Origin: Escherichia phage LPEK22
Direction: 5' to 3' (one strand)
Length of the DNA stretch: 64,000 bases
Sequence record: OK283619.1
The notes beneath the pieces are model-generated. The model did no database searches. It was not told the DNA's origin and worked only from the letters and a program-made list of their open reading frames with translations. Below are positions 3,896 to 24,065 of this stretch, one piece after another; positions within the stretch are counted from its first letter, which is position 1, and each line of letters opens with the position of its first letter. The position numbers and the translations under genes are program-made.

Positions 3896-4002
3896 AGTAT
3901 AGAATTCCTGTTCAGATCAAAGAAGAACACATTATTGGGTAAGGTTATGATACTGGCGGGTGGTTCAATAGAAAAGCCTCCAATCGGAGGCTTTAATCAG
4001 GA

Positions 4003-5551: not shown

Positions 5552-5555
5552 GAAA

Positions 5556-5583
5556 AGGGGATAGAGCAATAATACCCTATCCC
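5556..5583 (-). terminator. putative intrinsic terminator (minus-strand transcript)
   Basis: Hairpin GGGGATAG...CTATCCCC followed by a U-run on the minus-strand RNA, just downstream of gene 5601-6023. Confidence 0.4.
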
Positions 5584-5600
5584 CATTTATTGAAGAATTA

Positions 5601-6023
5601 TTAGTCTTCCGAACCTACAACCCCACCACGCAGATCCTGTGCTGGCTTACCATCAGGTGCCATGACATAGATGGTATTGATGGTCTCAAACCAAGACAAT
5701 AAATCAACTCCTTCAGTGTATGGCGTTACCGGAACAGAAGTTTTGATTTCTTTCTGTTCATCCTTCAAATCCGGATGACTTCCCGATAGGGTTAACCAAG
5801 CGAATCTTCCGTTGGGATAAATAATGCCTTCTTTGAACATTACAATCTTTTTGCGAGGATTATTGGCTTCGCCCAGACACACCACCAAATGATGTATCAT
5901 TTCGGGGCGCGTCAACAACGTGTCATCTTTGATAATGCCCTGCTTGACAGCAGAGATTACCACTTCATCCAGTAACGCCTGTTGCTGTTCCAGCGTCAGA
6001 GATTCGGTTAGTTTCACGCTCAT
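5601..6023 (-). CDS. hypothetical protein
   Basis: ORF trimmed to ATG at 6023 (MSVKL...) to avoid overlap with upstream gene. Confidence 0.5.
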   Translation of the reverse strand: MSVKLTESLTLEQQQALLDEVVISAVKQGIIKDDTLLTRPEMIHHLVVCLGEANNPRKKIVMFKEGIIYPNGRFAWLTLSGSHPDLKDEQKEIKTSVPVTPYTEGVDLLSWFETINTIYVMAPDGKPAQDLRGGVVGSED

Positions 6024-6027
6024 AAGA

Positions 6028-6597
6028 TCAGCCTTTGAAGTTAATCGGAGTCTGGACACCAGAGTCAAATGCGGCCTGGGTACGGGTGTCACTCACCACC
6101 TGACATGTCTTGTCAAGATCGATACGCGGATATCCAAAGATTCCTGCTATCAGAGAACCAGGGAACTGGCCAAGTTTAGTTTCATAGATCGCACATGCGT
6201 CCAATTTTTTAGTTTGGCTAATGCGGAATTCATCCCGACCTGAGCTGATAACAACCTGAATCTCTTTGTACAAAGATGAATCAAACTGAATATTCTGTTC
6301 CTGAATCCATTGCATTACTGCTTTGGAACCGTCTGCACCATAACGGCCTTGGAAAGTATCTTTGATCACTTCCTTCAAACCGTTTTTGTACATGTCAGGA
6401 ATCTGCGCCGTCTCCTGAACTTTGAGCGTGTAGTTGCTCAGGTGGTTTTCAGAATCTTTGTTGAACTTTTTGACCTGTTGTTCAATGCGGTTGAAATCAT
6501 TGAAATAGCTAACCACACTGCCAATCCCAATTACAGCAAATGCTAGAATTGCCAACCCAACGATCCAACCAATTGAAATACCTTTACGTTGTGACAT
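6028..6597 (-). CDS. membrane-anchored protein, possibly LemA-like
   Basis: 189 aa; N-terminal TM helix (ISIGWIVGLAILAFAVIGIGSVV) then soluble domain whose start (YFNDFNRIEQQVKKFN) resembles the LemA pattern from memory; GAGGAAG RBS. Confidence 0.45.
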   Translation of the reverse strand: MSQRKGISIGWIVGLAILAFAVIGIGSVVSYFNDFNRIEQQVKKFNKDSENHLSNYTLKVQETAQIPDMYKNGLKEVIKDTFQGRYGADGSKAVMQWIQEQNIQFDSSLYKEIQVVISSGRDEFRISQTKKLDACAIYETKLGQFPGSLIAGIFGYPRIDLDKTCQVVSDTRTQAAFDSGVQTPINFKG

Positions 6598-6612
6598 CTT
6601 TACTTCCTCTTG

Positions 6613-7722
6613 TTAAAACAAACGTTTGTAAGTGCGACCATTGTACTGCATGCGGCCTAATATGAAAACTGCGGTAAATGGGATACATCCAAACAACACG
6701 ACGATAATCACTTCCCAAGTTTTAAGATCTCGCCATTTCAGATATTCCATTTCCTTCATCTCGACTCGGTTGTATCCCTTACTGATATTGACCGCAACTT
6801 CTTGGAACACGGATATGCCCATTGGTTTCCCAGTCAATGAAAGTCCGTTACGAGAATGGAGTTCCATGTTGTTCATGCCGTCGGCAAATGACGTAGACTT
6901 ACCCCAATTAATTTTCATATCCTTTGAAATATCGGTGACTACAATAACATCGTTCTTTTTACCGCCAGACCATGCATATAGAAGTCCCTGAAAATATTCA
7001 ACAGGCTGGCCAGAAGTCACAACCCAAACGATATTAACCTGACGTGAAGCACCTAATGTTTTCAGAGTATTGTTCAGATAATCATTCCAGTAATCAACAG
7101 GAATGTCCATCCCTGACATATTCAGAACACGAGTTACTCGGTAATAATCATACACCCTCGGATATGAAGGGATATGCTCTTTGAACTTCTCGGCGAATTG
7201 CTGGTCAGATTTAGAGAATAATGAATCTTTGTTGCCCAGCACATAATTCATATATGAATGTTCACGTGCCGCAGGTTCCCCGATTTTAACTTGTGCCCAA
7301 CGCGGAGGCTCTGTAGTACCCTGACGATCAATACGGTCAATGCTCAGATCACCGACGGTTGTTAATACGTCCCAATCAACGTCATAAGAGTGCTCATAGC
7401 ATGTGCTGCAATGACGCGTTTGTGTACAAGATCGGTTATTTCCTGAACCAGAGCAAGATGTTGTGTAATAACACATACATTCATAAGAATGTTCACAACC
7501 CACCTTATTCCGTTGCTTATCAGTTACATATCCATTCAGGATTTCCACGTCCCCAGAACTACCAAGGGAGAAAGCAGCATATAATCCCGACTGGATAAGG
7601 CAAGACAATACGATAACAATGGCCGTGGCGATCAAAGTCTCCTTTGGCTCATGGGTCTTGCGGTGATATATTATAAACAAGATGGCCAAAATTACAGGAA
7701 CCACAAACAGAAGGTAAATCAT
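6613..7722 (-). CDS. membrane protein with Cys-rich extracytoplasmic domain
   Basis: 369 aa; hydrophobic N- and C-terminal segments; Cys-rich stretch GCEHSYECMCYYTTSCSGSGNNRSCTQTRHCSTCYEH; ATGA overlap with next gene. Confidence 0.55.
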   Translation of the reverse strand: MIYLLFVVPVILAILFIIYHRKTHEPKETLIATAIVIVLSCLIQSGLYAAFSLGSSGDVEILNGYVTDKQRNKVGCEHSYECMCYYTTSCSGSGNNRSCTQTRHCSTCYEHSYDVDWDVLTTVGDLSIDRIDRQGTTEPPRWAQVKIGEPAAREHSYMNYVLGNKDSLFSKSDQQFAEKFKEHIPSYPRVYDYYRVTRVLNMSGMDIPVDYWNDYLNNTLKTLGASRQVNIVWVVTSGQPVEYFQGLLYAWSGGKKNDVIVVTDISKDMKINWGKSTSFADGMNNMELHSRNGLSLTGKPMGISVFQEVAVNISKGYNRVEMKEMEYLKWRDLKTWEVIIVVLFGCIPFTAVFILGRMQYNGRTYKRLF

Positions 7723-8105
7723 AACACACCATCCACGAGTTGTTCCTTCGTCATACCAAGAAGTTGATTTTTATGCTCAGATTTAGCCCCATTTTTCAAC
7801 AACAGATCCCAACGTTCTTCATGATACTGTGGAGTCATTGCATCGTCAAAAGAAACATGGTGGCGATGCATAATTGTTGCAACGGTATGAAGAACGATTG
7901 CTGTTTCTCTTTTTAAAGCACGTGTATCCGTGATGTGGTCTTCGTATTCGATTCCCATCAAATCGAGTTCTTTTCGGATATATGCTATAGACAAATCACC
8001 TTCAGAATGCAATTTAACAATAGTCGCTTTCTTAGGATGTAACACGCCGTCTGTTTCTTTCATGAACAGATCGTACAAATATTGTTTGTATTCGGGGCGC
8101 TTCAT
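7719..8105 (-). CDS. hypothetical protein
   Basis: 128-aa ORF; ATGA-type overlaps at both ends. Confidence 0.55.
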   Translation of the reverse strand: MKRPEYKQYLYDLFMKETDGVLHPKKATIVKLHSEGDLSIAYIRKELDLMGIEYEDHITDTRALKRETAIVLHTVATIMHRHHVSFDDAMTPQYHEERWDLLLKNGAKSEHKNQLLGMTKEQLVDGVL

Positions 8106-8323
8106 CTCGTAATCCCTCCGGCACAGATGATATTCAGTTCACCGCGACGGAAACCGCCTTGCCCACCGTTCAATTTAGTCGGAAGCGTATCTTGAACTTT
8201 TTGTGCGAACTCTTCCGACACTACCAGATGACCCTTTTCTTGTTTCGGGGTAGATTCAAAATAGTCGCCAAATGTCGCTTCCATATCGAGCACAGACATG
8301 TCTTCAATTCGTTGCATTGCCAT
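8102..8323 (-). CDS. hypothetical protein
   Basis: 73-aa ORF; GAGG RBS. Confidence 0.5.
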   Translation of the reverse strand: MAMQRIEDMSVLDMEATFGDYFESTPKQEKGHLVVSEEFAQKVQDTLPTKLNGGQGGFRRGELNIICAGGITR

Positions 8324-8334
8324 GATATAGGACC

Positions 8335-8526
8335 TCAGTATAATTTCGTATAAACTTGTTTAACGCCAATATCGGCAGGAGCTGTGCTCTGCTGCATATT
8401 ATAGAATGCCAAATCTGCTTGTTCTTTGTTTTCAAAATCAACTACAACTGTGTGTACTGATATTGCTTCACCCTGTCCATAAGCATAACAACGGCTGGTG
8501 ACCAATATTTTGTATTGAGGTGTCAT
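8335..8526 (-). CDS. hypothetical protein
   Basis: 63-aa ORF; AAGGA RBS. Confidence 0.45.
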   Translation of the reverse strand: MTPQYKILVTSRCYAYGQGEAISVHTVVVDFENKEQADLAFYNMQQSTAPADIGVKQVYTKLY

Positions 8527-8607
8527 AAATCAATCCTTGCAAAAAGAAAGGGGAACGGGCTAATAATAACCCATTCCCCTTTATTGAAGAACGCAATCGC
8601 AATCAGA

Positions 8608-8775
8608 TTACTTTTTCTTCAGCTCGTCCAGTTTGGCTTCGATTTGTTCCAGGATGTCTTTACCCTTCTGAACAATCACTTCACCGTCTTGCGCGTGTTT
8701 ACGAAAGACCAGAGCGCCAGCTACGAAGCCGACAACAACGCCAGGAAGCGCGTACACCAACAGATCTTGTAACAT
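8608..8775 (-). CDS. small membrane protein (56 aa)
   Basis: Hand-translated, below the ORF-track cutoff: MLQDLLVYALPGVVVGFVAGALVFRKHAQDGEVIVQKGKDILEQIEAKLDELKKK; AGGA RBS upstream. Confidence 0.45.
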   Translation of the reverse strand: MLQDLLVYALPGVVVGFVAGALVFRKHAQDGEVIVQKGKDILEQIEAKLDELKKK

Positions 8776-8811
8776 GATAATATCCTCACTTTATAGGTGA
8801 GGATATTTATA

Positions 8812-10047
8812 TCAGCGCTTCAACAAAGACATGAGGTTTACACTGGTCGACTTCGGATTGTCCTCTATCTTTCGGACGGGCATTTTCAGATTAGTGTAAA
8901 CCTCAGATGGTTCCCAACGCGTACCCTGCTGTAAATGCCATATATGTAGAGGAACACCCGTCTCAAAGAACACAGGCATCTTCCACTTCTGGACGCCAGG
9001 AACGTGCCCTGCAGGAGCTTTTTCGCACAACAGGGTATCTGGTAGCCAGAGTGAACGGGCTTCCCATAATGCCTTACAGGAGTATTCAGGCCAAATACGT
9101 TCCATATAATCGATCTCGTCCCATGTACGCTCGGCGTCCCACCCGATGTAACGGGTATTCTTCAGTCGGAAGAATTTCTTCAGCCAACAAGCACCGGAGG
9201 TCTCAAAGTTCAGACGATTGATAAACGTGATGTGGCCAAACTCTTCAACGCATTCCTGAAACGCTTTCTCAAGGTCGGTTTCGAGTATATCACATTCTTC
9301 GTCTGTAATAGGACAACCGTTGATCTTTTTCTTCCCGTGCTTGGTCACCCAGTCGTCACGGTTTGACAAGAATGCCGCGCCGTTGCGGTTGGACTCGCTG
9401 CCATCGCGGTCACGCAGCATGAACCCAGGGACGTCGATCTCCCACATGTTGCCGAATACCATGTTCAGGGCTTCCAGGAAGTTCCAGGCGCTCAGGCGGC
9501 CAAAGTATTTCCAGGACATCGCCGTGTCCCACAGATTCGTGAATTGGTGGACAGGGATATCCAATTCAAGCATCGGTCGGAATGCTTCCATCTGAGTACG
9601 CCCAGCCAGCCAATCAATGTAGGACTGAACACACGGGATCATCTTCGACTTACGGTAACGGCAATCGGTATCGAAGCGCATACGCTCAAAGTTCAGGTTG
9701 TACCAATCAGAAAAGCGCTGCATCTCTTCTTTGGACTGAGGAGGCACAGGGAACTCACTGTAGATTGTCCATGGACCGATGGCGTTATAACAGCAGCCCC
9801 AAAGGAACGACATCCAGATCTTGCGCTCGATCTTCTCAAGCTGTGTGATGCCTTCAGTGACTTCGATCGCATAGTCCATCAGACGCATCTGCTGGTTGTG
9901 CTCTTCGGTGTAGGACAGCGCCTCCACCCAAGCCTTGAGCAGGTACATCCGATTCTCAGGCTTGCGATAGTCAACAGCCAGGTCAATCGGGTACTTCCAT
10001 TCAGCCGGGGGCGCATAGCCAGTCGGCATTTTAGAAATGTTATTCAT
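8812..10047 (-). CDS. hypothetical enzyme (411 aa), candidate amino-acid:DNA transferase of a thymidine-hypermodification pathway
   Basis: 411-aa ORF with GGGAG RBS; functional suggestion rests only on size and proximity to the P-loop kinase and polymerase. Confidence 0.55.
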   Translation of the reverse strand: MNNISKMPTGYAPPAEWKYPIDLAVDYRKPENRMYLLKAWVEALSYTEEHNQQMRLMDYAIEVTEGITQLEKIERKIWMSFLWGCCYNAIGPWTIYSEFPVPPQSKEEMQRFSDWYNLNFERMRFDTDCRYRKSKMIPCVQSYIDWLAGRTQMEAFRPMLELDIPVHQFTNLWDTAMSWKYFGRLSAWNFLEALNMVFGNMWEIDVPGFMLRDRDGSESNRNGAAFLSNRDDWVTKHGKKKINGCPITDEECDILETDLEKAFQECVEEFGHITFINRLNFETSGACWLKKFFRLKNTRYIGWDAERTWDEIDYMERIWPEYSCKALWEARSLWLPDTLLCEKAPAGHVPGVQKWKMPVFFETGVPLHIWHLQQGTRWEPSEVYTNLKMPVRKIEDNPKSTSVNLMSLLKR

Positions 10048-10229
10048 CCGATTTTACTCCCGAGTTCAACACGGAACGCCAGATAGAAGAAAGTGGCGAT
10101 AGATACAGGACATATCACCAAGAATGGGCGCTGTTGCACCCCTTCTGTGACCATGACGCCGACCAGCGAAACCGTAAAGATAACGAACATCAACATCATG
10201 AAGATAAAATCAACCTGCTTGATTTTCAT
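10044..10229 (-). CDS. small membrane protein
   Basis: 61 aa, two hydrophobic helices; GAGGAAG RBS. Confidence 0.45.
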   Translation of the reverse strand: MKIKQVDFIFMMLMFVIFTVSLVGVMVTEGVQQRPFLVICPVSIATFFYLAFRVELGSKIG

Positions 10230-10596
10230 CTTTCACTTCCTCTACAGGAGAAACAACTTCAGGCTCAGCTTCGGGAGCCAGCTGAATTTCTTCGGGGCTT
10301 ACTACGGGCTGTCCCAGAGACCAGATAGGCAGGAAACGACGATCATTCGTCACCAACCAAATTTGCTTGGCGGTTTTCGTCTTTTCGGAAATAAAATGCT
10401 GGGCATTGACTTGGGTACGAGACAAACCCACCTGACGCCAAGAACCGAAATCCTTAGAAGAAGGATTGGTATTCAGTTGAAATTGTGGGACGATTTTATT
10501 CTGTTCCGGATAGTAACGGACAGCGTTAATCATCTTCGCATCACCACGGTAATCAATAGCAACAGCGACAACGTTGCGTGGAATGAGGATTTTCAT
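10210..10596 (-). CDS. hypothetical protein
   Basis: 128-aa ORF; AAGGA RBS. Confidence 0.5.
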   Translation of the reverse strand: MKILIPRNVVAVAIDYRGDAKMINAVRYYPEQNKIVPQFQLNTNPSSKDFGSWRQVGLSRTQVNAQHFISEKTKTAKQIWLVTNDRRFLPIWSLGQPVVSPEEIQLAPEAEPEVVSPVEEVKDENQAG

Positions 10597-10597
10597 T

Positions 10598-10801
10598 TTA
10601 ATTCCTTTTGAAACTCTGAATTATGTTATAGACGAAAGGCGTTAATAAGATAGCACCCCCCAAATAATATAACGCGTAAACGTTCAATATTTCGGTTGAA
10701 TCCAACTCAACGATGCCCAAATATTTCATGACACCGACGAGCACAGCTGTGATACACATCACCAATCCGACGAACACAAAATATTTAGACATCTGTTTCA
10801 T
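10598..10801 (-). CDS. small membrane protein
   Basis: 67 aa, hydrophobic throughout. Confidence 0.45.
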   Translation of the reverse strand: MKQMSKYFVFVGLVMCITAVLVGVMKYLGIVELDSTEILNVYALYYLGGAILLTPFVYNIIQSFKRN

Positions 10802-10803
10802 TT

Positions 10804-11709
10804 CTAACCCTTACTCAACAGGCCGAGAAGGGATACAGAGGACTTTGTTACCTCTCCCTTGGCGCTCGCCTTGGTTTTAGATTTGGTCACCTTCTCAGGG
10901 ACTCGATGCGCTAGAGGATCATCCCCACCGACTTCGCGCGTCATTGGGTCAGTTTCACAGAATCCGTAGAAATCTTTGATGTCCAGACCCATGGCGTGAA
11001 ACTCACCACGCATTTGATGATGAATAGCGTTGCCAATCACCCACAAAGGTGCATCAAACGGCATCATGGCTAATTCGCTATCATTTCCTGTTTTGAATTC
11101 TTGAGTGTTTGTAGGCGATTGACGATACAACACGTCTTGCCCGCTGTAGTCATTGACCACCACTTCCCAACCCAGCACCAGCATTTCAGTCTTCGACTTC
11201 TCAAACTCCTTGGAGTAAGATTCGTTGCGTGACCAGCCGGAGTCCCCTGCTTCCTTACCAGAGCGACCACGGATGCGCGCATCATACTGATAGCGGTCTG
11301 GGTATGCAAAATAAAGCAACGCCAGAGATTCAATCGGATAGTTCTTGAACATCCATTCAGGACGCCATTTATCTGACAGCATGAGGGGTTCACCCTCGCA
11401 CACCAAAGTGTAACCCTGAGCCAGCCAGCCTTTGACCAGATCACGGGCGATATCACCCGAGCCTGTGGCGGCGTGGATGGCGTCCATGGAAGTCCAGGAA
11501 GCCAGACCGGATTTGTTGGACACAGTATACTGGCCGACGAAGATTAACTTCAGCTCTTCGAATTTCAGGCCGAATGGGCGCGTCTTGTCACCAATGGTGT
11601 AGGTGAGTTCAGTAGGCTCCAGCTTAGTGCGGAGCCATTCGATGAACTGGACTACTCTCGTACCCTTGCCCACGCCACTTGTTCCTTTCACTACAATTAT
11701 TTTAGCCAT
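10804..11709 (-). CDS. P-loop kinase, candidate 5-hydroxymethyl-dU DNA kinase
   Basis: 301 aa; N-terminal Walker A GTSGVGKGT; GAGGAAG RBS; sits among small genes beside the DNA polymerase. Confidence 0.6.
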   Translation of the reverse strand: MAKIIVVKGTSGVGKGTRVVQFIEWLRTKLEPTELTYTIGDKTRPFGLKFEELKLIFVGQYTVSNKSGLASWTSMDAIHAATGSGDIARDLVKGWLAQGYTLVCEGEPLMLSDKWRPEWMFKNYPIESLALLYFAYPDRYQYDARIRGRSGKEAGDSGWSRNESYSKEFEKSKTEMLVLGWEVVVNDYSGQDVLYRQSPTNTQEFKTGNDSELAMMPFDAPLWVIGNAIHHQMRGEFHAMGLDIKDFYGFCETDPMTREVGGDDPLAHRVPEKVTKSKTKASAKGEVTKSSVSLLGLLSKG

Positions 11710-12014
11710 TATGCATCTTCCTCAATACGCCAGCTCACACCGCCCAACCAGGGAGACCAGAAAACAGCAACCTGTGGGCGATCGTTTTCTACAAACTTCA
11801 CTTTATACTGGTCGTCGAAGTTATAGAAAATTTCATCGTCATCTGGTGCCATACCGTTTTCTATCAGAACACGCTTTAACTCCAGCGCCGCACCAACGGA
11901 AGTGGGTGTGGTTTGTTTACGAATGAAGTTGTTCACATGGATAATAACGCCATCCATATCGCTATCACCGGAACGCTTGTCTGGGGTTTCCCCAAACTTG
12001 GATTGTTCTTGCAC
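11709..12014 (-). CDS. hypothetical protein (start uncertain)
   Basis: Track ORF begins with TTG; a GTG preceded by GAGGAG gives a plausible start at 12014. Confidence 0.35.
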   Translation of the reverse strand: MQEQSKFGETPDKRSGDSDMDGVIIHVNNFIRKQTTPTSVGAALELKRVLIENGMAPDDDEIFYNFDDQYKVKFVENDRPQVAVFWSPWLGGVSWRIEEDA

Positions 12015-12024
12015 GATGTCCTCC

Positions 12025-12807
12025 TCAATGGACGTATTGATAATGGCCAATCAGGCGGTTCACCACTTCGACAATATTGCGGTTCAGGAAGTCGAAGTGG
12101 TTCTGGCCTTCGACTGGTTTAATATAAAGCATATCTTCCGAGTTCGAAAGATCCAGTTTTTCATAATTTCCCTGGGGAACAAAGATGACAAAAATATTGT
12201 TCATCGCACAGGGTTCAACGTATTTCGGGTTATCATCAATTAAAACATCACCTGCCAAAAGATGCTTTTCGTCGGTGCTGACAAACCCGTTGAAGATGCC
12301 AGGGAACTTGTCATAGACAAACTGGCGCTTGCTGCGCTCGTGTTCTGGCTCACACTTAGATACTGCGATCAATTCAACATTTTCAAAGTCTTCGAGAAGG
12401 ATCTTCTTCAGATTCACCAGGAACTCGTAAGCGCCTGGAAGCGGGTTCATCTTGGCATACAGGTCCGGCATGCGCCACCAATCCATAGGATCACGTCCTG
12501 TAGGTGAATCCATCCATTGACCAGCAACAAACACACGGCGCGTCAACCATGCTGGGTGAGCGCGTTCCCGCATGAGGATCGCCAAATCACCAGCATGAGC
12601 CATATAGCACTCTTTGGTGATACGCTGGAAATCATTGGGATAATCATGACAACCCATGTTTTCAGCAGCAGCTTTTGAATTGGAAATATTAAACCAATCC
12701 ACCCAAGGGGAGAGGCTATCAACCAAAGTCAAGTCTACGTCTACCAGGATACGATACATTCCACCGATTTTAGAATTGGCATCATACAGACCAACATGAT
12801 TATTCAT
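12025..12807 (-). CDS. HAD-like hydrolase/phosphatase-like protein
   Basis: Motif VDVDLTLVD (HAD motif I-like DxDxT) and C-terminal GDVLIDDNP (motif IV-like); start set at ATG 12807 with GGAG RBS. Confidence 0.5.
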   Translation of the reverse strand: MNNHVGLYDANSKIGGMYRILVDVDLTLVDSLSPWVDWFNISNSKAAAENMGCHDYPNDFQRITKECYMAHAGDLAILMRERAHPAWLTRRVFVAGQWMDSPTGRDPMDWWRMPDLYAKMNPLPGAYEFLVNLKKILLEDFENVELIAVSKCEPEHERSKRQFVYDKFPGIFNGFVSTDEKHLLAGDVLIDDNPKYVEPCAMNNIFVIFVPQGNYEKLDLSNSEDMLYIKPVEGQNHFDFLNRNIVEVVNRLIGHYQYVH

Positions 12808-13144
12808 CAGACTTCTCCACTTGATCATAACCAGTTGCGGTGCATTGCTCTTCTGTGCAATCTGCATACAGAACCACAGAAGATTCCTTCACGTAAGTGG
12901 TACAGTGATAGGTTTCATCTTCCTGGATGGAATCGTCATAATTGCAAACAGTTTGCAACGGACCAGGAGTGGTGTTATCCAACGCAGCATGTGCCTTGAT
13001 TGTGTCTTCCATCTTATTCACCGCTTGCTGATTGGTGAACGTCGGCGCATCGAGGTCAACAGTAGACGCAACGTCCAGAAGGGTAGAGCATGCAGTGGTA
13101 GAGAAAGCCAGAGCACACACCAGAAGAATCTTATTGAGTTTCAT
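12800..13144 (-). CDS. putative lipoprotein
   Basis: MKLNKILLVCALAFSTTACS: signal peptide with lipobox-like TTAC; track start is a TTG, first ATG at 13144. Confidence 0.5.
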   Translation of the reverse strand: MKLNKILLVCALAFSTTACSTLLDVASTVDLDAPTFTNQQAVNKMEDTIKAHAALDNTTPGPLQTVCNYDDSIQEDETYHCTTYVKESSVVLYADCTEEQCTATGYDQVEKSDE

Positions 13145-13204
13145 AACAATACCTGTTGTCAAAGGGATAACAGGGGGAATTATATCCCCCTTTGGTTTAT
13201 TGAA

Positions 13205-16201
13205 TCAACCTTTCTTGCCCATCATGGACAACAGATTAACTCGACGTTTATGAGACCAACCAACCACATCCAAGATAGACTGAATTGGCTCTATAAAGGT
13301 CTTTTCAAACGTGGTGTGGTAATCCACCCATTTATCCAATCCCAATTCTGGAGGAAGGAAGTCAGGGAAGGCTATGCGATCATTCCCCACAGGATTGCCA
13401 GGTTTCAGGTTGATGATTTTAACCTTATCGCCAGATTCGATAGGGGGAAGACCGAGATCTTCGTGCTTATCGATCAGCTTGTTGTACATAATACAAGCCT
13501 TGGCAGCAAAGTGCGTACCGCTGATGTAATTCCCGTTCGCGTCTAACCACTTCTCAATATCGCTTACACCAGATGCCTGAGCGATATCATCCACGGTGAG
13601 TTCCATATATTCCTTTTTGTATCCAGCGATTAATTCCTGAACCTCTGCCTCAGTACCGAGCAGGACTTTCTCATAACATTTAACCAGACGCTCACGACAC
13701 CACTCAGGAGTGGTTGATTTACGCGCTTCCAGACCTTTGAATTTGATCTTTGGCTTCTCATACTTGATGCCTTCGCTATCGTATACTGCCATGCAATACA
13801 TCTTCTTGGCTCGCCATACAGCAGACGATGCGATGACCTCACGTTCCCAGACCATGCGCTGCTCAAACCCGTTCATGGTATTACACAACAACTGCGCCCA
13901 TTCACTGGTTTTTGGCTGGTAATTCTCTTTGATCCATTGGTCAATGTTATCAACGAGTTTATGATGATCCTTTTCTTCAGGCCACAATTGCTTGACCAGG
14001 CGTTCAATGCAAATGTAGTTGGAGTCTGTATCACCTGCGATAACAAAATCCTGACCAGTAGTACCACAAAGTTTGTTCAGATAATCATCAGTGTGGCGTT
14101 TGTTCCATTTATTGATCAACTGGCCGGAAGTGGTAATTGCTTCAGCGATGTTGATGTTGAAGTATTCTTTAAACCAGACGTTAGAAATTGCACCATATCC
14201 TGCGTTCATCAAGATCTTCAGACCTTGTTGTAACGTATCTTGGGCAACTCCCAAATCTTCCCACTTGTGCATGACTTCAGTCAGGTGATCAAGGTCGATA
14301 TGCTTGTGTTCTTCATACCATTCAGGATCGTAGAAACGAGACTTCATGGCAGATTCAAGGTGGAAATCACCTTTAGACATTTCCTTACACCAACCAGCCC
14401 ATTGCTCATACTTCAGACCAGTTGCTTTCTCTCCTTTACGGTCAGCGTATATGCCTCGCATAATTTCGGAAAGGAAAGACATCTTCTCATTACTGAAGAA
14501 TTGAACGTTCGGGGTAAACGAAACGTTATATCGGCGTAATGTTTCAAAATGGAATTCACCCAGCGCGACCAATTCATCAACAACTTGTATGCGTTCATCA
14601 ATAGCACGCTGCAGCTTGTCGTGAAGATTTTTGAGATGACGGCGCTTGTTCATAGGCGTTGTCATATCATTCATCGCTTTGGTCAATTCTTCACACATGG
14701 ACTCAATGATATCGCGACGTGTGTGCTTGTCAGAAACGATAGTCTCAGGACCAAGGTTGTATTGCTGTATGATGTGGGGATACAGGGAGTTTAAGTCCTC
14801 AGAGAATACCCAGAAATATATCCCTGGTGCAACCTCCATGACATATGCGCCTTCAAAGTCCGTTGGACCATCATATACACGCTGTATTTTAGGGACAATC
14901 CCCTTTTCATAAAGACGATAGTAACACATCGCCAGCCATGGTGCTACAGTCCCAAGACCGTCTTCATAGTTAGATTTGGTGCGATACGCCAATACGAACA
15001 TCAGCTGTATCAAACGCAGCTTTTGTTCTAAACGCCACACGAGTTTGACGTCTTTGATACCATATCGGGTGTGTTTGCAATAATCATTAAAATATAGATC
15101 ATACAATGACTTGCTTTCACTATAATCCAACTTCTTCTCACCGAGTTCACAATAAGCGATCCAATCCAGTGAGTATTTTTCGCGGGTTGTGTACGTGTGT
15201 TTCTTGTAAACTTGCATGTAGTCCATCATAGGACAACCCACGAATTGATAAGAAGTCACGTCGCCTTTACGGTCTTTGATGAAACGTTTCTTGAGTTTGC
15301 CCCAAGGACTGAGGCGCTCTGCCTGAGTTTCACCGAGAACCTGCGTAATACGTTCAACCAAGTACGGGCTATCAAACGTTTCGATGTTCCAGCCAGTCCA
15401 ACCATCAAATTGACGTTCAGACCAATAATCTAAGAAAGCGCGAAGAAGTTCTTGTTCAGTCGTGTATTCTTTGTATTCAACCTCAAGACCACCTATCTCT
15501 TCATCATTTGGATCATATTTGAATTTATGGCGATCCTTAGAACACGGCATACCCCAGACATAGAACTTGTTGGTGTTCATGTCTTGAAGCTGGATGAGCG
15601 TAATAGGGAAGGCGGCATTCATGTTCTGTGTGATCTTACCATTACTATCAATGATAGGGAACTGGTCAGTCACGTTGTTGGAAATAAAGGAACCTGGGAA
15701 GTGCTCTCGAACGAAATCATGGTTGGCCAACACTTGCTTATGGAATCGGCGAACACGCGCCTCGCTCCCCTTAAACGTGTGGGATTCAATCGTCGCGTGA
15801 GGAAATGGGCCTTTAGTCATTTCTCCATCGCGCCACCCAGCCGAGAAAACTTCGATATCCACGTTGGCGATGTGAATATTTGAGTAATCGGGGGTAATCA
15901 TCCCAGGAAAACTATGCGCTATGAATTGATATGCATAATCCGTTTGTCCGTAAACGGCAGCGCCTTCGACCTCCTTATATTCCTCCAGATAGTTGTCGGC
16001 GTCACGCATTGACGCAAATTTTTTAGACACCAACGGTTCATTGAGGAGGCCAATCTTTTCAACTTTGGAATAATCGGCTGTGGGTAAATACAAGGTGGGT
16101 TCGAATTTCTTACGCAACATACGGCGATTGCCGTTGTCGTCTGCAATACGAATCAGAAGGTCGTTACCCTGTCGGGCAACGTTCGTATAGAAAACAGTCA
16201 T
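13205..16201 (-). CDS. DNA polymerase, family B
   Basis: ORF trimmed to ATG at 16201 (MTVFYTN...; GGAG RBS); exonuclease DIE motif (NVDIEVFSAG), motif B KILMNAGYGA, motif C VIAGDTDSNYI. Confidence 0.9.
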   Translation of the reverse strand: MTVFYTNVARQGNDLLIRIADDNGNRRMLRKKFEPTLYLPTADYSKVEKIGLLNEPLVSKKFASMRDADNYLEEYKEVEGAAVYGQTDYAYQFIAHSFPGMITPDYSNIHIANVDIEVFSAGWRDGEMTKGPFPHATIESHTFKGSEARVRRFHKQVLANHDFVREHFPGSFISNNVTDQFPIIDSNGKITQNMNAAFPITLIQLQDMNTNKFYVWGMPCSKDRHKFKYDPNDEEIGGLEVEYKEYTTEQELLRAFLDYWSERQFDGWTGWNIETFDSPYLVERITQVLGETQAERLSPWGKLKKRFIKDRKGDVTSYQFVGCPMMDYMQVYKKHTYTTREKYSLDWIAYCELGEKKLDYSESKSLYDLYFNDYCKHTRYGIKDVKLVWRLEQKLRLIQLMFVLAYRTKSNYEDGLGTVAPWLAMCYYRLYEKGIVPKIQRVYDGPTDFEGAYVMEVAPGIYFWVFSEDLNSLYPHIIQQYNLGPETIVSDKHTRRDIIESMCEELTKAMNDMTTPMNKRRHLKNLHDKLQRAIDERIQVVDELVALGEFHFETLRRYNVSFTPNVQFFSNEKMSFLSEIMRGIYADRKGEKATGLKYEQWAGWCKEMSKGDFHLESAMKSRFYDPEWYEEHKHIDLDHLTEVMHKWEDLGVAQDTLQQGLKILMNAGYGAISNVWFKEYFNINIAEAITTSGQLINKWNKRHTDDYLNKLCGTTGQDFVIAGDTDSNYICIERLVKQLWPEEKDHHKLVDNIDQWIKENYQPKTSEWAQLLCNTMNGFEQRMVWEREVIASSAVWRAKKMYCMAVYDSEGIKYEKPKIKFKGLEARKSTTPEWCRERLVKCYEKVLLGTEAEVQELIAGYKKEYMELTVDDIAQASGVSDIEKWLDANGNYISGTHFAAKACIMYNKLIDKHEDLGLPPIESGDKVKIINLKPGNPVGNDRIAFPDFLPPELGLDKWVDYHTTFEKTFIEPIQSILDVVGWSHKRRVNLLSMMGKKG

Positions 16202-16280
16202 TGTTTGTCTCCGGTTAACCGTGCCGTTAGCACGTCCCCGTAATTTAGCCGAGGAACGTTCAATGACCAAGGAGTTTATT

Positions 16281-16853
16281 ATGGCAATCCCCTTTGTGAG
16301 TATGATCCCAGGGGCGCTCAAGCAACTCTGGAACCTCGGGACTGATTTGATCCAATACAAGCGGGAAGTTGTTCAGGCCAAACACGATGTCAAGCTAGAG
16401 GCTATCAAGTCCTCCTCAGATTGGGAGCTGTCTAAGATCACCGAAGTCGGCGGGTCTTGGAAAGACGAATTCTGGACTATCGTGTTAGCTGTTCCCGCTA
16501 TCCTCGTCATGACTGCTCCGGTTGTGGAACTAATTCTGTTCCCTGATGAGTATCATAAAGGGGATTTCATCAAAGCAGTAATCGACGGCCTCCAGGCGCT
16601 CGATACCACACCTGAATGGTATACCTATTCGTTATTGACAGCAATTAGTGCATCATTCGGTATCAAGGGGTATAACCATTACAAAAGCAACAGCCGGAAG
16701 GCGCAAGCTGTGGATGCTCTCAAGCAGTTTGGGGTCAAAGTGGTTAACAAAGATCCCACTGTTGTTACTCAGTCGGGTTCTCCCGATCTTGAGTCTGCTC
16801 CCCCAGCTGGGTCTACTGCGACCTCTGGTGCGTGGCCTGATCTGAAGAAATAA
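16281..16853 (+). CDS. hypothetical membrane-associated protein
   Basis: AAGGAG RBS 7 nt before ATG 16281 (MAIPFVSMIPG...); hydrophobic segments. Confidence 0.55.
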   Translation: MAIPFVSMIPGALKQLWNLGTDLIQYKREVVQAKHDVKLEAIKSSSDWELSKITEVGGSWKDEFWTIVLAVPAILVMTAPVVELILFPDEYHKGDFIKAVIDGLQALDTTPEWYTYSLLTAISASFGIKGYNHYKSNSRKAQAVDALKQFGVKVVNKDPTVVTQSGSPDLESAPPAGSTATSGAWPDLKK

Positions 16854-16859
16854 GTTAGA

Positions 16860-16885
16860 GGGGAGGAAACTCCCCTTTCTTTTGG
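16860..16885 (+). terminator. intrinsic terminator
   Basis: Hairpin GGGGA-GGAAAC-TCCCC followed by TTTCTTTTGG. Confidence 0.5.
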
Positions 16886-16894
16886 TGTTAAGGA

Positions 16895-17107
16895 ATGAAA
16901 GTGGTAAACAAGAGATTGCTCGTCACCCAAGGCGGGGCGACGATAGTGAGAGGAAGGATTTACGAACAGATTCAGCTGGGTGATCATAAGACACGCCTGA
17001 CTGTCAAAGCACCGGACGGCGGATGGCCCACAAAGGTGGTTGTCCCCGACGGCCTCATAGAACGAGGGACAGCAGTGTACAAAGGAGCAGAGTTCAAAAT
17101 TTATTAA
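16895..17107 (+). CDS. hypothetical protein
   Basis: 70-aa ORF; start may be ATG 16895 or GTG 16901. Confidence 0.4.
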   Translation: MKVVNKRLLVTQGGATIVRGRIYEQIQLGDHKTRLTVKAPDGGWPTKVVVPDGLIERGTAVYKGAEFKIY

Positions 17108-17124
17108 AATATTTATTGAATAAA

Positions 17125-17153
17125 GTTTACTTCTTCAATAACTGGCGTATACT
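17125..17153 (+). promoter_or_regulatory. sigma70-type early promoter candidate (GTTTAC-N17-TATACT) with AT-rich upstream element
   Basis: GTTTAC 17125-17130, 17-nt spacer, TATACT 17148-17153; preceded by TTTATTGAATAAA; about 50 nt upstream of gene 17204. Confidence 0.4.
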
Positions 17154-17203
17154 TCTAATTGTAGTACGAACAAACAACAATCTGAAGAGAAGGAAATACA
17201 TCA

Positions 17204-17760
17204 TGGCAATCGAAATTATCGCTCAATCCAAATCCGGCAAAACTGTATTGTTCGGCACCGAAGAAGGCCGTGTAATCACCACTTTGGGCACAGTTGACGG
17301 CAGCAACCCCGTAAAAGGCGGTCGCTTCCTGGTTGAGTACGGTTCTCGTGTCGTGATGGTAAGTAAAATTGATGGGCGTGATATCACTGCTCCTCGTCAA
17401 GAATTCTTTGATTCACGTTCTGCCGCCATGCAATTCTTTTTCTTCCAGAAACGTCACGAACTGTTCGTTGAAGCGAAAGACGCAGGTCTGGACGACGCAA
17501 CGGCTGAGCTGATTGCCGAAGGTAAAATGACTCTTGAGACTGCTCTGGGAGACATGGATTACGAAGCCGAAGCGCATTATATTGAATATTCCGCATATCA
17601 GAACGAATGTGAAGATGATCCGGAAGATGATGGATTTGATCCAGATCTTCACGGCGGCGAGGATGACAATACTCCTTCTCTGGAAGTTATCATGGCTGGT
17701 GGTCAGGCCGCTTGGGAATGGCAGAATGAAAAGAACGCATGGTTGGATTCCCGCCTCTAA
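17204..17760 (+). CDS. hypothetical protein with acidic C-terminal region
   Basis: AAGGA RBS then ATG 17204 (MAIEIIAQSKSGK...); acidic stretch ECEDDPEDDGFDPDLHGGEDD. Confidence 0.55.
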
Positions 17761-17769
17761 TATGACAAA

Positions 17770-17790
17770 GCCCCTTCGGGGGCTTACTTT
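17770..17790 (+). terminator. intrinsic terminator
   Basis: GCCCC-TTCG-GGGGC hairpin followed by TTACTTT. Confidence 0.5.
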
Positions 17791-17808
17791 GAACTGAAGG
17801 ACTATATT

Positions 17809-17958
17809 ATGATTTTTATCGTGTGGGTAGTATTCGCATTTCTGGCCATGGCCGACATCGGCAAGTATCACCTAATCCCCAGTGACCTGACTGTCCTGCT
17901 GTACGGTATGGTTTCGTACATCCTGGGTTATGTCCGCGCCCGTCTTCTGTCTGAATGA
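17809..17958 (+). CDS. small membrane protein (49 aa)
   Basis: Hand-translated MIFIVWVVFAFLAMADIGKYHLIPSDLTVLLYGMVSYILGYVRARLLSE; shares the leader GAAGGACTATAT with the next gene. Confidence 0.4.
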   Translation: MIFIVWVVFAFLAMADIGKYHLIPSDLTVLLYGMVSYILGYVRARLLSE

Positions 17959-17969
17959 AGGACTATATC

Positions 17970-18512
17970 ATGAATATACCAAAAACTCCTGTCCGTATTG
18001 CCGTCGAGCCTCTGCTGGTTGATGCTGAGAATGCTGCTGAGCAGTACGCGAACAAAGTCATCAAGAACATAATGGACGATCTGGCATCCAACGGCTGGGA
18101 CGTCGAGAAGTGCGCTCCGTGGCCATCTTCGGTTGGTGTCAAGTTTGGTGATCCAGATTACCAACGAATGAAATCAAAACATGCGCTCTACCGTTCTTTG
18201 ACCCAGGCAGTGAATCCTTCTTACATACCTGGGAAGCCGGATATTGTCAAAGCTGATCCTGAGCGCCATGCTCTGTTTGTCAAAGAAGCACGTCGAAACG
18301 CTGCGATGCAATATGAGTCTTTCATTTGTAAACTGGAAGACAAAATTGGTGGGCACAGCGCGGCTGTGCTGAATGGTTCCCATATATGGGGTTATTCAAT
18401 CCTAACCGTGACTACACCAGAGGGGATCGAGCGCTGGAAGACTCAGACGATTATCAATGTGTCCAAGCTGGGCAAACTCTTTAACCAATATCCAACGAGG
18501 AAGGTGAAATGA
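17970..18512 (+). CDS. hypothetical protein
   Basis: ATG 17970 (MNIPKTPVRIAVEP...) preceded by GAAGGACTATATC. Confidence 0.55.
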   Translation: MNIPKTPVRIAVEPLLVDAENAAEQYANKVIKNIMDDLASNGWDVEKCAPWPSSVGVKFGDPDYQRMKSKHALYRSLTQAVNPSYIPGKPDIVKADPERHALFVKEARRNAAMQYESFICKLEDKIGGHSAAVLNGSHIWGYSILTVTTPEGIERWKTQTIINVSKLGKLFNQYPTRKVK

Positions 18513-18883
18513 TGAAAAACTTCGCACAAGAATTACAGACTACGATTGACCAGGCTCAGATTTGGGAAGCCATGGGGATAGTTGAAAAAGCCGTTGATAT
18601 CTTTGTTTGCAAAATGAAGAAGCAACTCGTTTCCCAAGCAAATCGCGGAGTTGAAATTGATGACATGGTGTACGCTGTTGGTGGCCACAGGTTTGACGAA
18701 ATATTAACCGCATTTCAACAGGCATATAAGTCTCAAAAATACCCAACAGACAAGCAAGTCGAAAAGTTCAAAACATTGTTGGTGGCGAGTCTTCTGAAGG
18801 AAGGTTTGAAGTTCGAATTACACAAGGATGAAAGAACAGATGTCGTAACAATGAGATTCACAGTACACACAAACGATATCTAA
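18509..18883 (+). CDS. hypothetical protein
   Basis: 124-aa ORF; GAGGAAGG RBS; ATGA overlap with upstream gene. Confidence 0.55.
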   Translation: MMKNFAQELQTTIDQAQIWEAMGIVEKAVDIFVCKMKKQLVSQANRGVEIDDMVYAVGGHRFDEILTAFQQAYKSQKYPTDKQVEKFKTLLVASLLKEGLKFELHKDERTDVVTMRFTVHTNDI

Positions 18884-18884
18884 A

Positions 18885-18909
18885 ACAAAGGGGCATTAAG
18901 CCCCTTTGT
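18885..18909. terminator. bidirectional terminator between convergent genes
   Basis: ACAAAGGGG-CATTAAG-CCCCTTTGT hairpin flanked by A-runs and T-runs. Confidence 0.5.
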
Positions 18910-19368
18910 TTATTTCCCATCCCAAAAGTCGTCTTCATCGTCTACTTCATCAAACGCAGAATCCAATTCTTCGTCAGAGTACTCTGGAAGACGACCATTC
19001 TGTTTCAGATATTCAATTTCGTCATCTTCCAATTGAAGATCCGTGGCTATAAACAGCGCCCCTGTTTCTTCATCGTGCTCAATACTGTAAGATGTATATT
19101 CAGCACCCTGGACTGTAATGATGATAGACGTCGGGTCTTCTGGGTCCACATGGGCTTCAAACGGGATACCGTCAATCGGGGCGTCCTCTAAAAATGTAGC
19201 AAGAGCTACGGCGGCGCGGACGACGTCTGTCCCTTGCACGGAAGCATAAATCTCTTCAGCGCCTGTTTCCCCGCGCTCAAAGAATTCAATCGTAGTCCCG
19301 TCTTGAACACCAGTCCAGATAGGCATGTCTGCTGGGGAATCCGCTTCAAATAATTTCGAAATTGGCAT
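18910..19368 (-). CDS. highly acidic protein
   Basis: 152 aa, very rich in D/E (EDDEIEYLKQNGRLPEYSDEELDSAFDEVDDEDDFWDGK); GAGGA RBS. Confidence 0.55.
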   Translation of the reverse strand: MPISKLFEADSPADMPIWTGVQDGTTIEFFERGETGAEEIYASVQGTDVVRAAVALATFLEDAPIDGIPFEAHVDPEDPTSIIITVQGAEYTSYSIEHDEETGALFIATDLQLEDDEIEYLKQNGRLPEYSDEELDSAFDEVDDEDDFWDGK

Positions 19369-19403
19369 GGTAATGTCCTCTTGAATAAACCGCTTTGGAC
19401 TAT

Positions 19404-19853
19404 TTAGGCTTCTCTGGTCGCCAACCCTGGCTTAAACACCACCATTTCCTCAACGTTATTGGCACTCATAGAGGCTATAGAATCGAACCCTTTGTTGATA
19501 AGTTCTTTCACATTATCATGTATCTTACCAGGCTTTATCCCCAACTCTCGCATTTTATTTTCCCACACCGAAACATTGTTGGAATCTATTACAAGAGTCT
19601 TCTTGGCCTTGACACGAAATGCCATGACAATAGGTTCACCAGATTGACGATAGCGCACGGCATTTTCTGCGTAGATCTGTGCCTTTTCTGGATCCCCCGT
19701 CAGGTAAAACCCAGCACCCATCGTACCAGAGTCAGTCTGGCCAAATTTTTCAAAATCAAAGATATCGAATTCAACATTAGACCCATGATACAAAACGATA
19801 TTCGTAAAATCAGGTAACGTTGATTCGCGATAAAATTCTAGAAAGGTTTTCAT
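19404..19853 (-). CDS. hypothetical protein with H-G-S motif
   Basis: 149 aa; LYHGSNVEF, GAGFYLTGD and a later EE pair, weakly reminiscent of H-Y-E ADP-ribosyltransferase/Tpt1-like folds. Confidence 0.5.
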   Translation of the reverse strand: MKTFLEFYRESTLPDFTNIVLYHGSNVEFDIFDFEKFGQTDSGTMGAGFYLTGDPEKAQIYAENAVRYRQSGEPIVMAFRVKAKKTLVIDSNNVSVWENKMRELGIKPGKIHDNVKELINKGFDSIASMSANNVEEMVVFKPGLATREA

Positions 19854-19892
19854 AGATACCCCACACTGGTCGTATGGGGTATTTAGGATGGA

Positions 19893-21086
19893 TTAGCTGG
19901 GGACAAACTCATTCACAGGGACATGTTCAGGTATTGATAATTCAGGACAAGCAGCTTTCATCGCTTCCAGATATGGCTTGCTACCCACGATCCAAAACAA
20001 TGAGTTCTCATTAAGCAATTCTGGTTTGTGTTCCTGTATCCATGTCATCACCTTCCCTTCATAACGAGGATGCAACTCAATATCTCCCCACTGGTAATCC
20101 ATGAGGTCGTTGTAACGAACCCAATTAGTGGTATGAAGATCCCAATGGTGTACCTCAAAGCGAGGAAGCACGATATCCGGCTCGTTCTTTGGCCTGATAC
20201 CACTTAGGAGGCCAGCCAGCGAAACGCTCTTAGAGGCATGCTGAAGATCCTTCTTACCATACACATAATCTGGGTTGTCGTGATAGCGACGAGTGAAATC
20301 AGTTATGTGAGGGAGGTTTGCTTGCTTACCGATAATGCGCAAACGACTTTCAATGAAATCTAATCGGTTAGGTCCAATCCCGATCAGATAGACATTCTTC
20401 AGATTTGGTTTCGGATGCATCGCTAAACCTGTCAGGATACTGGTGCATGAATTACAAGAACCAGCAGGAATGATCAGATCAGTGATATGGTCTGGGATAT
20501 TGGCAACCTGCTCGCCACCCAGCATATGGAATCCAGCAATGCGTTCTGGTGAATGAACGGTATGATCCAATGTAATGCCATATTCCAGATAATACGCCTT
20601 TGGATTTAATTGTTCAATGAGTTTCTTACAGCGCGGCTGAATGGTGCTATTGTAACCAGATCCAACAAAGTTGAACTCACTACCAAACCATGCTGACATT
20701 GAAACCATATCATGATTCATGCATGTGGTTGGTTTAGTGGCACCCAGCACAGTGGTTGTCTTGCCGCCGAAATGCCGTGAGACTGCCGTCGCCATAGGGG
20801 ACTGCGGACTACCAACTACAGTACCATGGATAAGATCTGGGGATCCTCCAGCTTTCAGATGCTCCATCATGAGCCAGATGGCCTGGCGGAGTTTGCTGCC
20901 ATTGATCCCCTGCTTGCCATTCATATAGCATGACAAAGGCGCGAAGTAATCTTCACGTTTGAACCAAACCTGCTGATTGGTTTCTGGATTGGCAATAAGT
21001 TCGCACGGGGTGTGTTTGTAGAGATAGTCTTCCCAGTGAACCAGATTACGGTCGAGGGAAAGGGTATCGAAGATGGTTTTGTTCAT
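19893..21086 (-). CDS. PLP-dependent enzyme (fold-type II, ACC-deaminase-like)
   Basis: 397 aa; N-terminal KREDYFAPLSCYMNGKQGINGSKLRQ resembles the ACC deaminase/D-cysteine desulfhydrase lysine-containing motif; AGGAG RBS. Confidence 0.55.
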   Translation of the reverse strand: MNKTIFDTLSLDRNLVHWEDYLYKHTPCELIANPETNQQVWFKREDYFAPLSCYMNGKQGINGSKLRQAIWLMMEHLKAGGSPDLIHGTVVGSPQSPMATAVSRHFGGKTTTVLGATKPTTCMNHDMVSMSAWFGSEFNFVGSGYNSTIQPRCKKLIEQLNPKAYYLEYGITLDHTVHSPERIAGFHMLGGEQVANIPDHITDLIIPAGSCNSCTSILTGLAMHPKPNLKNVYLIGIGPNRLDFIESRLRIIGKQANLPHITDFTRRYHDNPDYVYGKKDLQHASKSVSLAGLLSGIRPKNEPDIVLPRFEVHHWDLHTTNWVRYNDLMDYQWGDIELHPRYEGKVMTWIQEHKPELLNENSLFWIVGSKPYLEAMKAACPELSIPEHVPVNEFVPS

Positions 21087-23074: not shown

Positions 23075-23163
23075 TGGCGGAAGGTGAAGGATTCGAACCT
23101 TCGGGGGCTAAAAGCCCCACTCGATTAGCAGTCGAGTCCCTTAAACCTCTCGGGCAACCTTCC
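23075..23163 (-). tRNA. tRNA-Ser (anticodon GCU), type II with long variable arm
   Basis: Hand fold of reverse complement: acceptor GGAAGGT/ACCTTCC, anticodon stem CTCGA/TCGAG, loop CUGCUAA, variable hairpin GGGGC-TTTTA-GCCCC, T-arm GAAGG-TTCGAAT-CCTTC, encoded CCA. Confidence 0.6.
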
Positions 23164-23989
23164 GTATACTGCGCTTCGGTCAAGAATTTCCAAGCCATGA
23201 CCTAAATCTGGGTTCTTGACCTGACCGAAACGACTTATTGGTGCTCGTTAGAGGATTTGAACCCCAGCACTCTGGTGATCAACCCAGAGAGTCGCGCCTC
23301 ATCCATTTGTTAGCCTAAACGAGTCTTGCAAAACCCGCACCGACCGTCTACAAACAGACTGCTTGACCGAGCGTAATATGGACGGGCTTCACACCCGATT
23401 GTGCATTTGATCTGCCGTAGCCCAACTCCCCGCGCTTATCAGCGCCGATTGGTTAACTGACACCAGTGCCTTCTGGTTCGATCTCCTGGAACTTTACAGG
23501 CTTCGCGCCCGACCATTTCTGGAAGTTGGGGCATCGTTTCCGATGTGGAGTCACCCCATTTTATACACAGCTGGCTGCAACGCTTACTGTGTTTGGTCTA
23601 CCACCACGTGCTGGGCCACGCTTGAGGACATCGGCCATCCTTCCTCAGCTAATCCACGCGGTGGTAGATTTTGTATCAGAGTGTCCGGTGTAGCTTTCCG
23701 TGAGGTGCGCACTACTGTAGCCTCTACACTCTGAATTTGGTGGGCGTTACTTTCGTCGGGTTCAGATTCCGTTCGGCTATTAGACGTCGCTCGAGAGAAC
23801 TTGTCGTTCGCGTACTTCGTGCTTACTTGCTTTCGTTTCACACCCATTGTTTGTCGTCGGGCGGGGGATTCAAACCCCAATCTTTAGTTTGTGTTTCTTC
23901 AAAGCTATCATATGTTCACTTTGAATACTAGACTCCCCTGGACATCAAAACAGAATCTCTATTCCATCCTGCAAGACCCGACATAATCC

Positions 23990-24065
23990 TGGCGACGATG
24001 ACAGGACTTGAACCTGCGACATACGATTTAACAGACCGCCGTTCTACCGACTGAACTACATCGTC
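23990..24065 (-). tRNA. tRNA-Asn (anticodon GUU)
   Basis: Hand fold: acceptor GACGATG/CATCGTC, D-arm GTTC-AGTCGGTA-GAAC, anticodon loop CUGUUAA, T-arm GCAGG-TTCAAGT-CCTGT, encoded CCA; close to E. coli tRNA-Asn. Confidence 0.6.

Follow-up and report, generated by a model that had tools for sequence, protein, structure and literature searches.

The polymerase region of Escherichia phage LPEK22 very probably encodes three enzymes of the known ViI-type thymidine hypermodification pathway

Introduction

The closest described counterpart of the locus considered here, which lies at positions 8812 to 21086 of a 64,000-nt stretch of the genome of Escherichia phage LPEK22 (OK283619.1; hereafter the window), is the thymidine hypermodification system of Salmonella phage ViI (Vi01), whose end product in phage DNA is 5-(2-aminoethoxy)methyl-2'-deoxyuridine (5-NeOmdU). 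Lysates expressing five ViI proteins, gp67, gp160, gp226, gp243 and gp247, are sufficient to form this nucleoside on DNA containing 5-hydroxymethyl-2'-deoxyuridine (5-hmdU) (Lee et al. 2018, PMC5889632). Both gp67 and gp243 phosphorylate 5-hmdU in DNA, gp243 giving a phosphorylated nucleotide of 418 u; purified gp247, in which a cysteine and a glutamate are essential, adds L-serine through its side-chain oxygen to generate O-serinylthymidine; and purified gp226 binds pyridoxal phosphate (PLP), as seen in its absorbance spectrum, and decarboxylates O-serinylthymidine to 5-NeOmdU, K92 being proposed as the lysine of the Schiff base; it has a Phyre2 match to structure 1j0a at 98.9% confidence (Lee et al. 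2021, PMC8989533).

One and the same nucleoside, of 301 Da, was measured at about 40% of thymidines in ViI, CBA120, CBA6 and Vibrio phage 1.255.O, and SFP10 is named in Table 1 of that study among the phages with 5-hmdU DNA kinases, 5-NeOmdU being predicted for all ViI-like phages (Lee et al. 2018, PMC5889632). More recently, 5-NeOmdU was detected by liquid chromatography and mass spectrometry (HPLC-MS) in the Taipeivirus phiHS2, which has homologues of all ViI modification proteins (2026 preprint), and the modification genes are described as highly conserved across the Ackermannviridae (2024 review). The modification has consequences for the handling of the DNA, as, of over 200 Type II restriction enzymes tried, ViI DNA resists about 71% (PMC6449724).

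Results

The 12.3-kb region of LPEK22 is identical in DNA sequence (100%) to that of Salmonella phage kage (MT074476) and Escherichia phage KEP4 (PP047754), and 99.6% identical to that of SFP10 (NC_016073). The entire window aligns to kage at 98.3-100% identity, the alignment spanning both ends of the linear kage record. Kage is classified in the species Kuttervirus SFP10 (Ackermannviridae, Cvivirinae), and phage ViI (NC_015296) belongs to the same genus. The initial annotation had proposed a gene set for thymidine hypermodification flanking the DNA polymerase, composed of four open reading frames (ORFs) on the minus strand, which we recover at the coordinates given there, with products of 411, 301, 260 and 397 aa. 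On the evidence that follows, we consider it very likely that the region encodes the three post-replicative enzymes of the ViI-type 5-NeOmdU pathway, a reading based on orthology, conserved residues and synteny.

The 301-aa protein (10804-11709, minus strand) is the counterpart of gp243, a clade 2 5-hmdU DNA kinase. It matches the Pfam family HMUD2 (PF18747, '5-hmdU DNA kinase 2') with E = 3.5e-149 and 496.4 bits (cutoff 25) over its full length, residues 1-300 aligning with positions 1-298 of the 298-position profile, and is 85% identical to ViI gp243 (YP_004327565, orf00243), which occupies the syntenic position. The Walker A motif GTSGVGKGT, already recognized by the initial annotation, was located at residues 9-17 and corresponds to GTSGTGKGT in ViI, while the C-terminal tail diverges between the two phages. 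A nucleotide-kinase or polynucleotide-kinase affiliation, which would have spoken against the original proposal, was not found: no guanylate-kinase or polynucleotide-kinase family of Pfam matches the protein at E <= 0.01. As the orthologue of gp243, the kinase is predicted to phosphorylate 5-hmdU of replicated DNA at its 5-hydroxymethyl group.

For the 411-aa protein (8812-10047, minus strand), initially described as of unknown fold, in a set proposed to contain an amino acid transferase, the family could be established. It matches Pfam ADDT (PF18724) with E = 2.8e-61 and 207.7 bits (cutoff 26.2), residues 49-292 covering positions 2-228 of the 232-position profile, so that both of the profile searches originally suggested, for the 5-hmdU DNA kinase and aGPT-Pplase families, gave matches. 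It is 92% identical to ViI gp247 (YP_004327568, orf00247) across all 411 residues, of which 33 differ, and 100% identical to the proteins of SFP10 and KEP4, and is thus assigned as an amino acid:DNA transferase of aGPT-Pplase clade 2, orthologous to gp247. All ten of its cysteines are identical in the ViI protein. When the protein was aligned with those of ViI, Vibrio phage K493 and Mycobacterium phage Magpie (26% identical), the sole invariant cysteine of the four sequences was C287, and E282, five residues upstream, was likewise invariant; these residues are probably the published essential cysteine and glutamate of gp247. The donor would be serine, linked through oxygen, as suggested by the 92% identity to gp247 and by the occurrence of 5-NeOmdU in phages with more diverged transferases.

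The third enzyme, of 397 aa (19893-21086, minus strand), had been proposed as a PLP-dependent decarboxylase, and its comparison with ViI bears this out: it is 93% identical to gp226 (YP_004327553, orf00226) over 394 residues and syntenic with it, and its Lys65 (motif GINGSKLRQ) lines up with K92 of ViI. The ViI annotation gives 424 aa; the LPEK22 protein is shorter because its ORF cannot be lengthened in the upstream direction. As the orthologue of gp226, a PLP-dependent O-serinylthymidine decarboxylase, this enzyme would convert O-serinylthymidine in DNA to 5-NeOmdU.

The idea of a modification gene set around the polymerase therefore holds for these three pathway genes, but not as a whole set, as just three of the five sufficient ViI genes lie in the window. 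No match in the 64-kb window was obtained for ViI gp67, the thyA-like protein, the deoxynucleoside monophosphate (dNMP) kinase, the dUTPase, gp160 or an adjacent MazG-like protein. In kage, proteins like gp67, thyA, the dNMP kinase, the dUTPase, gp160 and MazG are all encoded, with identities of 69-95% to those of ViI. Among them, kage_115 corresponds to Pfam HMUDK_HMUD1, the second kinase of gp67 type (E = 2.4e-113); kage_48 to HMUDK_hel, of gp160 type (E = 1.6e-83); and kage_116, which adjoins the second kinase, to Thymidylat_synt (E = 4.3e-16), being the predicted dUMP hydroxymethylase. The initial annotation had regarded the absence of a hydroxymethylase from the rest of the genome as an argument against its proposal, an objection that does not apply because the nearly identical complete genome of kage encodes this thymidylate-synthase-like protein.

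If LPEK22 follows the ViI route, a thymidylate-synthase-like dUMP hydroxymethylase, a dNMP kinase and a dUTPase/NTP pyrophosphatase, all encoded outside the window, would supply 5-hmdUTP, which the phage polymerase (13205-16201) would presumably incorporate into DNA. The kinase at 10804-11709, with the second kinase encoded elsewhere in the genome, would then phosphorylate the hydroxymethyl group of 5-hmdU in an ATP-dependent reaction, yielding 5-phosphomethyl-2'-deoxyuridine (5-PmdU). Subsequently, a cysteine thiolate of the transferase (8812-10047), probably that of C287 aided by E282, would attack C6 of the base, so that the phosphate of 5-PmdU is expelled and an exocyclic methylene is formed, to which the side-chain hydroxyl of free L-serine would be added to give O-serinylthymidine. 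Finally, the PLP enzyme (19893-21086), through a Schiff base at Lys65, would decarboxylate the serine moiety to produce 5-NeOmdU, with an expected share of modified thymidines of about 40%. We infer that the virion DNA of LPEK22 carries 5-NeOmdU, since the enzyme activities and the product are known for ViI proteins that are 85-93% identical.

The polymerase of family B (13205-16201, minus strand; Pfam DNA_pol_B_exo1 and DNA_pol_B, PHROG 262, and so named in kage and ViI) heads a tightly packed array of minus-strand genes. Its start is taken as the annotated one at 16201, although the longest ORF reaches 16360. In order, the array comprises the polymerase, a DUF7292 lipoprotein (12800-13144), the gene for a haloacid dehalogenase (HAD)-like protein, a DUF7254 protein (11709-12014), the kinase, three small ORFs, the transferase and a 55-aa ORF; from polymerase to transferase the genes are co-directional, with intergenic gaps of -20 to +60 nt. 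The DUF7254 gene (minus strand, as is the DUF7292 gene; Pfam DUF7254, E = 6.8e-51; 'putative thioredoxin' in kage) abuts the kinase so closely that its last nucleotide also begins the kinase start codon (gap of -1 nt). The DUF7254 and DUF7292 proteins are specific to this phage family, and the DUF7292 gene shares its tight array with the kinase and HAD genes. The modification genes are scattered around the polymerase and not contiguous, a layout identical to that of ViI. Downstream of the transferase gene and the 55-aa ORF, a strong terminator-like hairpin of 16 pairs followed by a T run (8547-8582, minus strand) is probably the end of the polymerase-to-transferase transcription unit; 22 terminator-like sites were observed, against 11.7 +/- 3.3 in shuffled sequences. 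We claim no promoter because the sigma-70 scan was at chance level, with 25 sites found versus 22.4 expected.

The HAD-like protein (12025-12807, minus strand; 260 aa) is a HAD-superfamily NT5C-like homologue of 5'(3')-deoxyribonucleotidases. A longer ORF reaches 12867, but the start taken is an ATG within it, at 12807, as annotated in kage and ViI. The match to Pfam NT5C (PF06941; E = 8.7e-8, 32.7 bits, cutoff 24.8) covers only residues 130-223 of the 280-aa ORF, but the HAD motifs are intact, with DVDLT (motif I) at residue 23 and LIDDNP at residue 191 of the 260-aa protein, and weak matches to solved 5'(3')-deoxyribonucleotidases (E = 0.011-0.08) were found in the Protein Data Bank (PDB). 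The protein is 86% identical to ViI orf00239. Its gene sits between the polymerase and the gp243-type kinase (kinase 2), as it also does in Vibrio phage K493. The initial annotation had counted this hydrolase among the members of the set: the gene is real and its position is kept, but its place in the pathway is conjecture only, because it is outside the five ViI genes that suffice for the modification. It could possibly be an accessory enzyme acting on the nucleotide pool.

Some other features of the window are worth recording. A 149-aa protein (19404-19853, minus strand) matches ART-PolyVal, the ADP-ribosyltransferase of polyvalent proteins (E = 2.2e-10), as well as DUF3990, and its counterpart in kage is labelled as a virion structural protein; the protein may be an ADP-ribosyltransferase that is packaged or ejected. 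Three clustered tRNA genes, Ser(GCT), Asn(GTT) and Met(CAT), lie at 23075-24553 (minus strand), with ARAGORN and Rfam in agreement, and the Rfam search returned nothing beyond them. The kage record has in addition a 135-nt 'tRNA-OTHER' just past the Asn gene (at about 24086-24220), reported by neither ARAGORN nor Rfam, with tRNA-Met situated further on, beyond the part of kage compared. Finally, about 400 bp at 62501-62897 are absent from kage, the flanking segments being 98-99.7% identical; small ORFs of 112-149 aa overlap this stretch, a small indel in the region that follows the gene for the major head protein.

Discussion

Several observations weigh against the assignment of this region to the 5-NeOmdU pathway. 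As described above, two members of the sufficient set of five ViI genes are missing from the window; the PLP enzyme matches Pfam PALP, the profile for fold-type II PLP enzymes (E = 1.6e-7), at 31.4 bits, just below the curated cutoff of 35 bits, and its single-sequence AlphaFold model was unusable, with a mean confidence (pLDDT) of 38; the catalytic cysteine and glutamate are assigned from an alignment of four sequences, not from the published mutant numbering; and the chemistry of the product comes from ViI, CBA120, CBA6, 1.255.O and phiHS2 only. As regards the PLP enzyme, we consider the assignment settled because of its identity of 93% to the characterised ViI enzyme.

Databases give these proteins other names, and if those were right the kinase would be a guanylate or nucleotide kinase and the PLP enzyme a threonine ammonia-lyase or 1-aminocyclopropane-1-carboxylate deaminase, both acting on free metabolites and with no role in DNA modification. 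The kinase is indeed a 'guanylate kinase' in PHROG 4409 and RefSeq, and the kage record names the PLP enzyme 'putative threonine ammonia lyase'. However, these names are older automatic annotations, the full-length HMUD2 match of the kinase at 496 bits stands against the lack of any guanylate-kinase match in Pfam at E <= 0.01, and the ViI proteins that are 85% and 93% identical act on 5-hmdU and O-serinylthymidine in DNA (PMC8989533). Since the ViI biochemistry contradicts both names, we have rejected them, and consider it extremely improbable that they describe the real functions. A different product is also improbable, if slightly less so: enzymes of the same families could attach another group, such as another amino acid, so that the final base would not be 5-NeOmdU. 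The donors of ADDT-family enzymes do vary, with glycine in M6 and PaMx11, putrescine in PhiW-14 and serine in ViI (PMC8989533), and the LPEK22 transferase is not identical to gp247, from which it differs at 33 of 411 residues. Yet CBA120, with a transferase about 87% identical, and the Taipeivirus phiHS2, whose own sequence was outside the comparison, yield 5-NeOmdU by mass spectrometry, and no tailoring genes of the radical S-adenosylmethionine (radical-SAM), flavin or acetyltransferase types turned up among the proteins scanned in the region. The transferases of CBA120 and of Klebsiella-type Ackermannviridae, at about 87% identity, are further from the LPEK22 protein than that of ViI (92%). 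A different product is unlikely, then, because the CBA120 transferase is the more distant one, a Taipeivirus makes 5-NeOmdU, and the genes show high conservation within the Ackermannviridae.

Another proposal would add to the 5-NeOmdU pathway instead of replacing it, namely that the HAD/NT5C-like gene, perhaps with the adjoining DUF7254 gene, is an unrecognised part of it, which we regard as rather doubtful, although considerably more plausible than the two preceding alternatives. In one version, the enzyme could be a dTMP/dUMP nucleotidase that favours 5-hmdUTP over dTTP, as in the Bacillus phages with 5-hydroxymethyluracil (hmU), where phage dTMPases belong to the pre-replicative pathway (Lee et al. 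2021, PMC8989533). The match to the NT5C family together with the intact HAD motifs would fit such an activity, as would the position of the gene, between the polymerase and kinase 2 in a tightly packed, presumably co-transcribed array on the same strand, a placement kept in a Vibrio phage with proteins only about 34-52% identical. However, a conserved position beside the polymerase does not by itself link the gene to modification, and in vitro reconstitution with five ViI genes succeeded without it (PMC5889632). Furthermore, complete exclusion of dTTP is not evident, because about 60% of the thymidine in ViI DNA stays canonical (Lee et al. 2018); if the nucleotidase proposal were true, the canonical thymidine of virion DNA would have to arise after replication and not from dTTP.

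With the three enzymes assigned to the 5-NeOmdU pathway, the practical value of the analysis lies in annotation, as database entries for this species name its kinase, transferase and decarboxylase genes variously as hypothetical protein, guanylate kinase or threonine ammonia lyase. PHROGs places all four proteins in unannotated or misleadingly named families, NCBIfam gave no matches for any of the five proteins tested, and single-sequence searches of the PDB with phmmer found nothing for the transferase, the kinase or the PLP enzyme, the solved structure of PaMx11 gp46 being too distant for phmmer. Mislabelling extends to other records: ViI gp67, a 5-hmdU DNA kinase (NC_015296, 38203-38865), is a 'terminase small subunit' in RefSeq, and enzymes of gp226 type appear as 'threonine ammonia lyase', 'threonine dehydratase' or 'DNA repair protein'. 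The restriction resistance associated with the modification bears on the cloning and sequencing of Kuttervirus phages and on their use in phage therapy. Nothing new is added to the biology in Lee et al. (2018, 2021). The system is known, and its occurrence in this phage species has been predicted explicitly; the residual novelty is limited to the possible role of the HAD and DUF7254 genes.

Comparison with more distant phages gives an idea of how far this organization is shared. In Mycobacterium phage Magpie (MN234171), an ADDT homologue with 26% identity (gene 3) adjoins an 'adenylate kinase' (gene 4) at 827-3462, and in its relative Vincenzo a 'carboxylate deaminase' matches the PLP enzyme, an arrangement that resembles a cluster for thymidine hypermodification within a mycobacteriophage genus. 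In Vibrio phage K493 (OZ196434), whose proteins are about 34-52% identical, the order of polymerase, HAD-like gene, kinase 2 and transferase is kept. At 3986-20435, K493 also has gp160-like, thyA-like, dNMP-kinase, NTP-pyrophosphatase and PLP genes, the modification set being compacted into about 17 kb, and a homing endonuclease has been inserted immediately upstream of kinase 2; a gp67-type (HMUD1) kinase was not detected in the 30 kb of K493 examined.

The Pseudomonas phages M6 and PaMx11, which make 5-(2-aminoethyl)-2'-deoxyuridine (5-NedU) and 5-acetylaminomethyl-2'-deoxyuridine (5-AcNmdU) respectively, follow the same logic, in which a 5-hmdU DNA kinase is followed by a clade 2 aGPT-Pplase (ADDT) with a covalent cysteine, and M6 also has a homologous PLP decarboxylase (of M6 gp52 type). 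They differ in that both use glycine through its amine, whereas the LPEK22 enzymes would form an ether from serine, and in that M6 adds a radical-SAM isomerase, and PaMx11 a flavin lyase and an acetyltransferase, with none of these among the proteins scanned here. The ViI pathway (the kinases gp243 and gp67, gp247, gp226 and gp160) is much closer: its orthologues are 85-93% identical, with the same order and orientation around the polymerase, and the Walker A motif, the PLP lysine and the ten cysteines of the transferase are conserved. The species differs, that of LPEK22 being Kuttervirus SFP10, but no functional difference is apparent. Closest of all are SFP10, kage and KEP4, which share 99.6-100% DNA identity in this region and identical transferase and PLP proteins, so that essentially nothing distinguishes the locus of LPEK22 from theirs.

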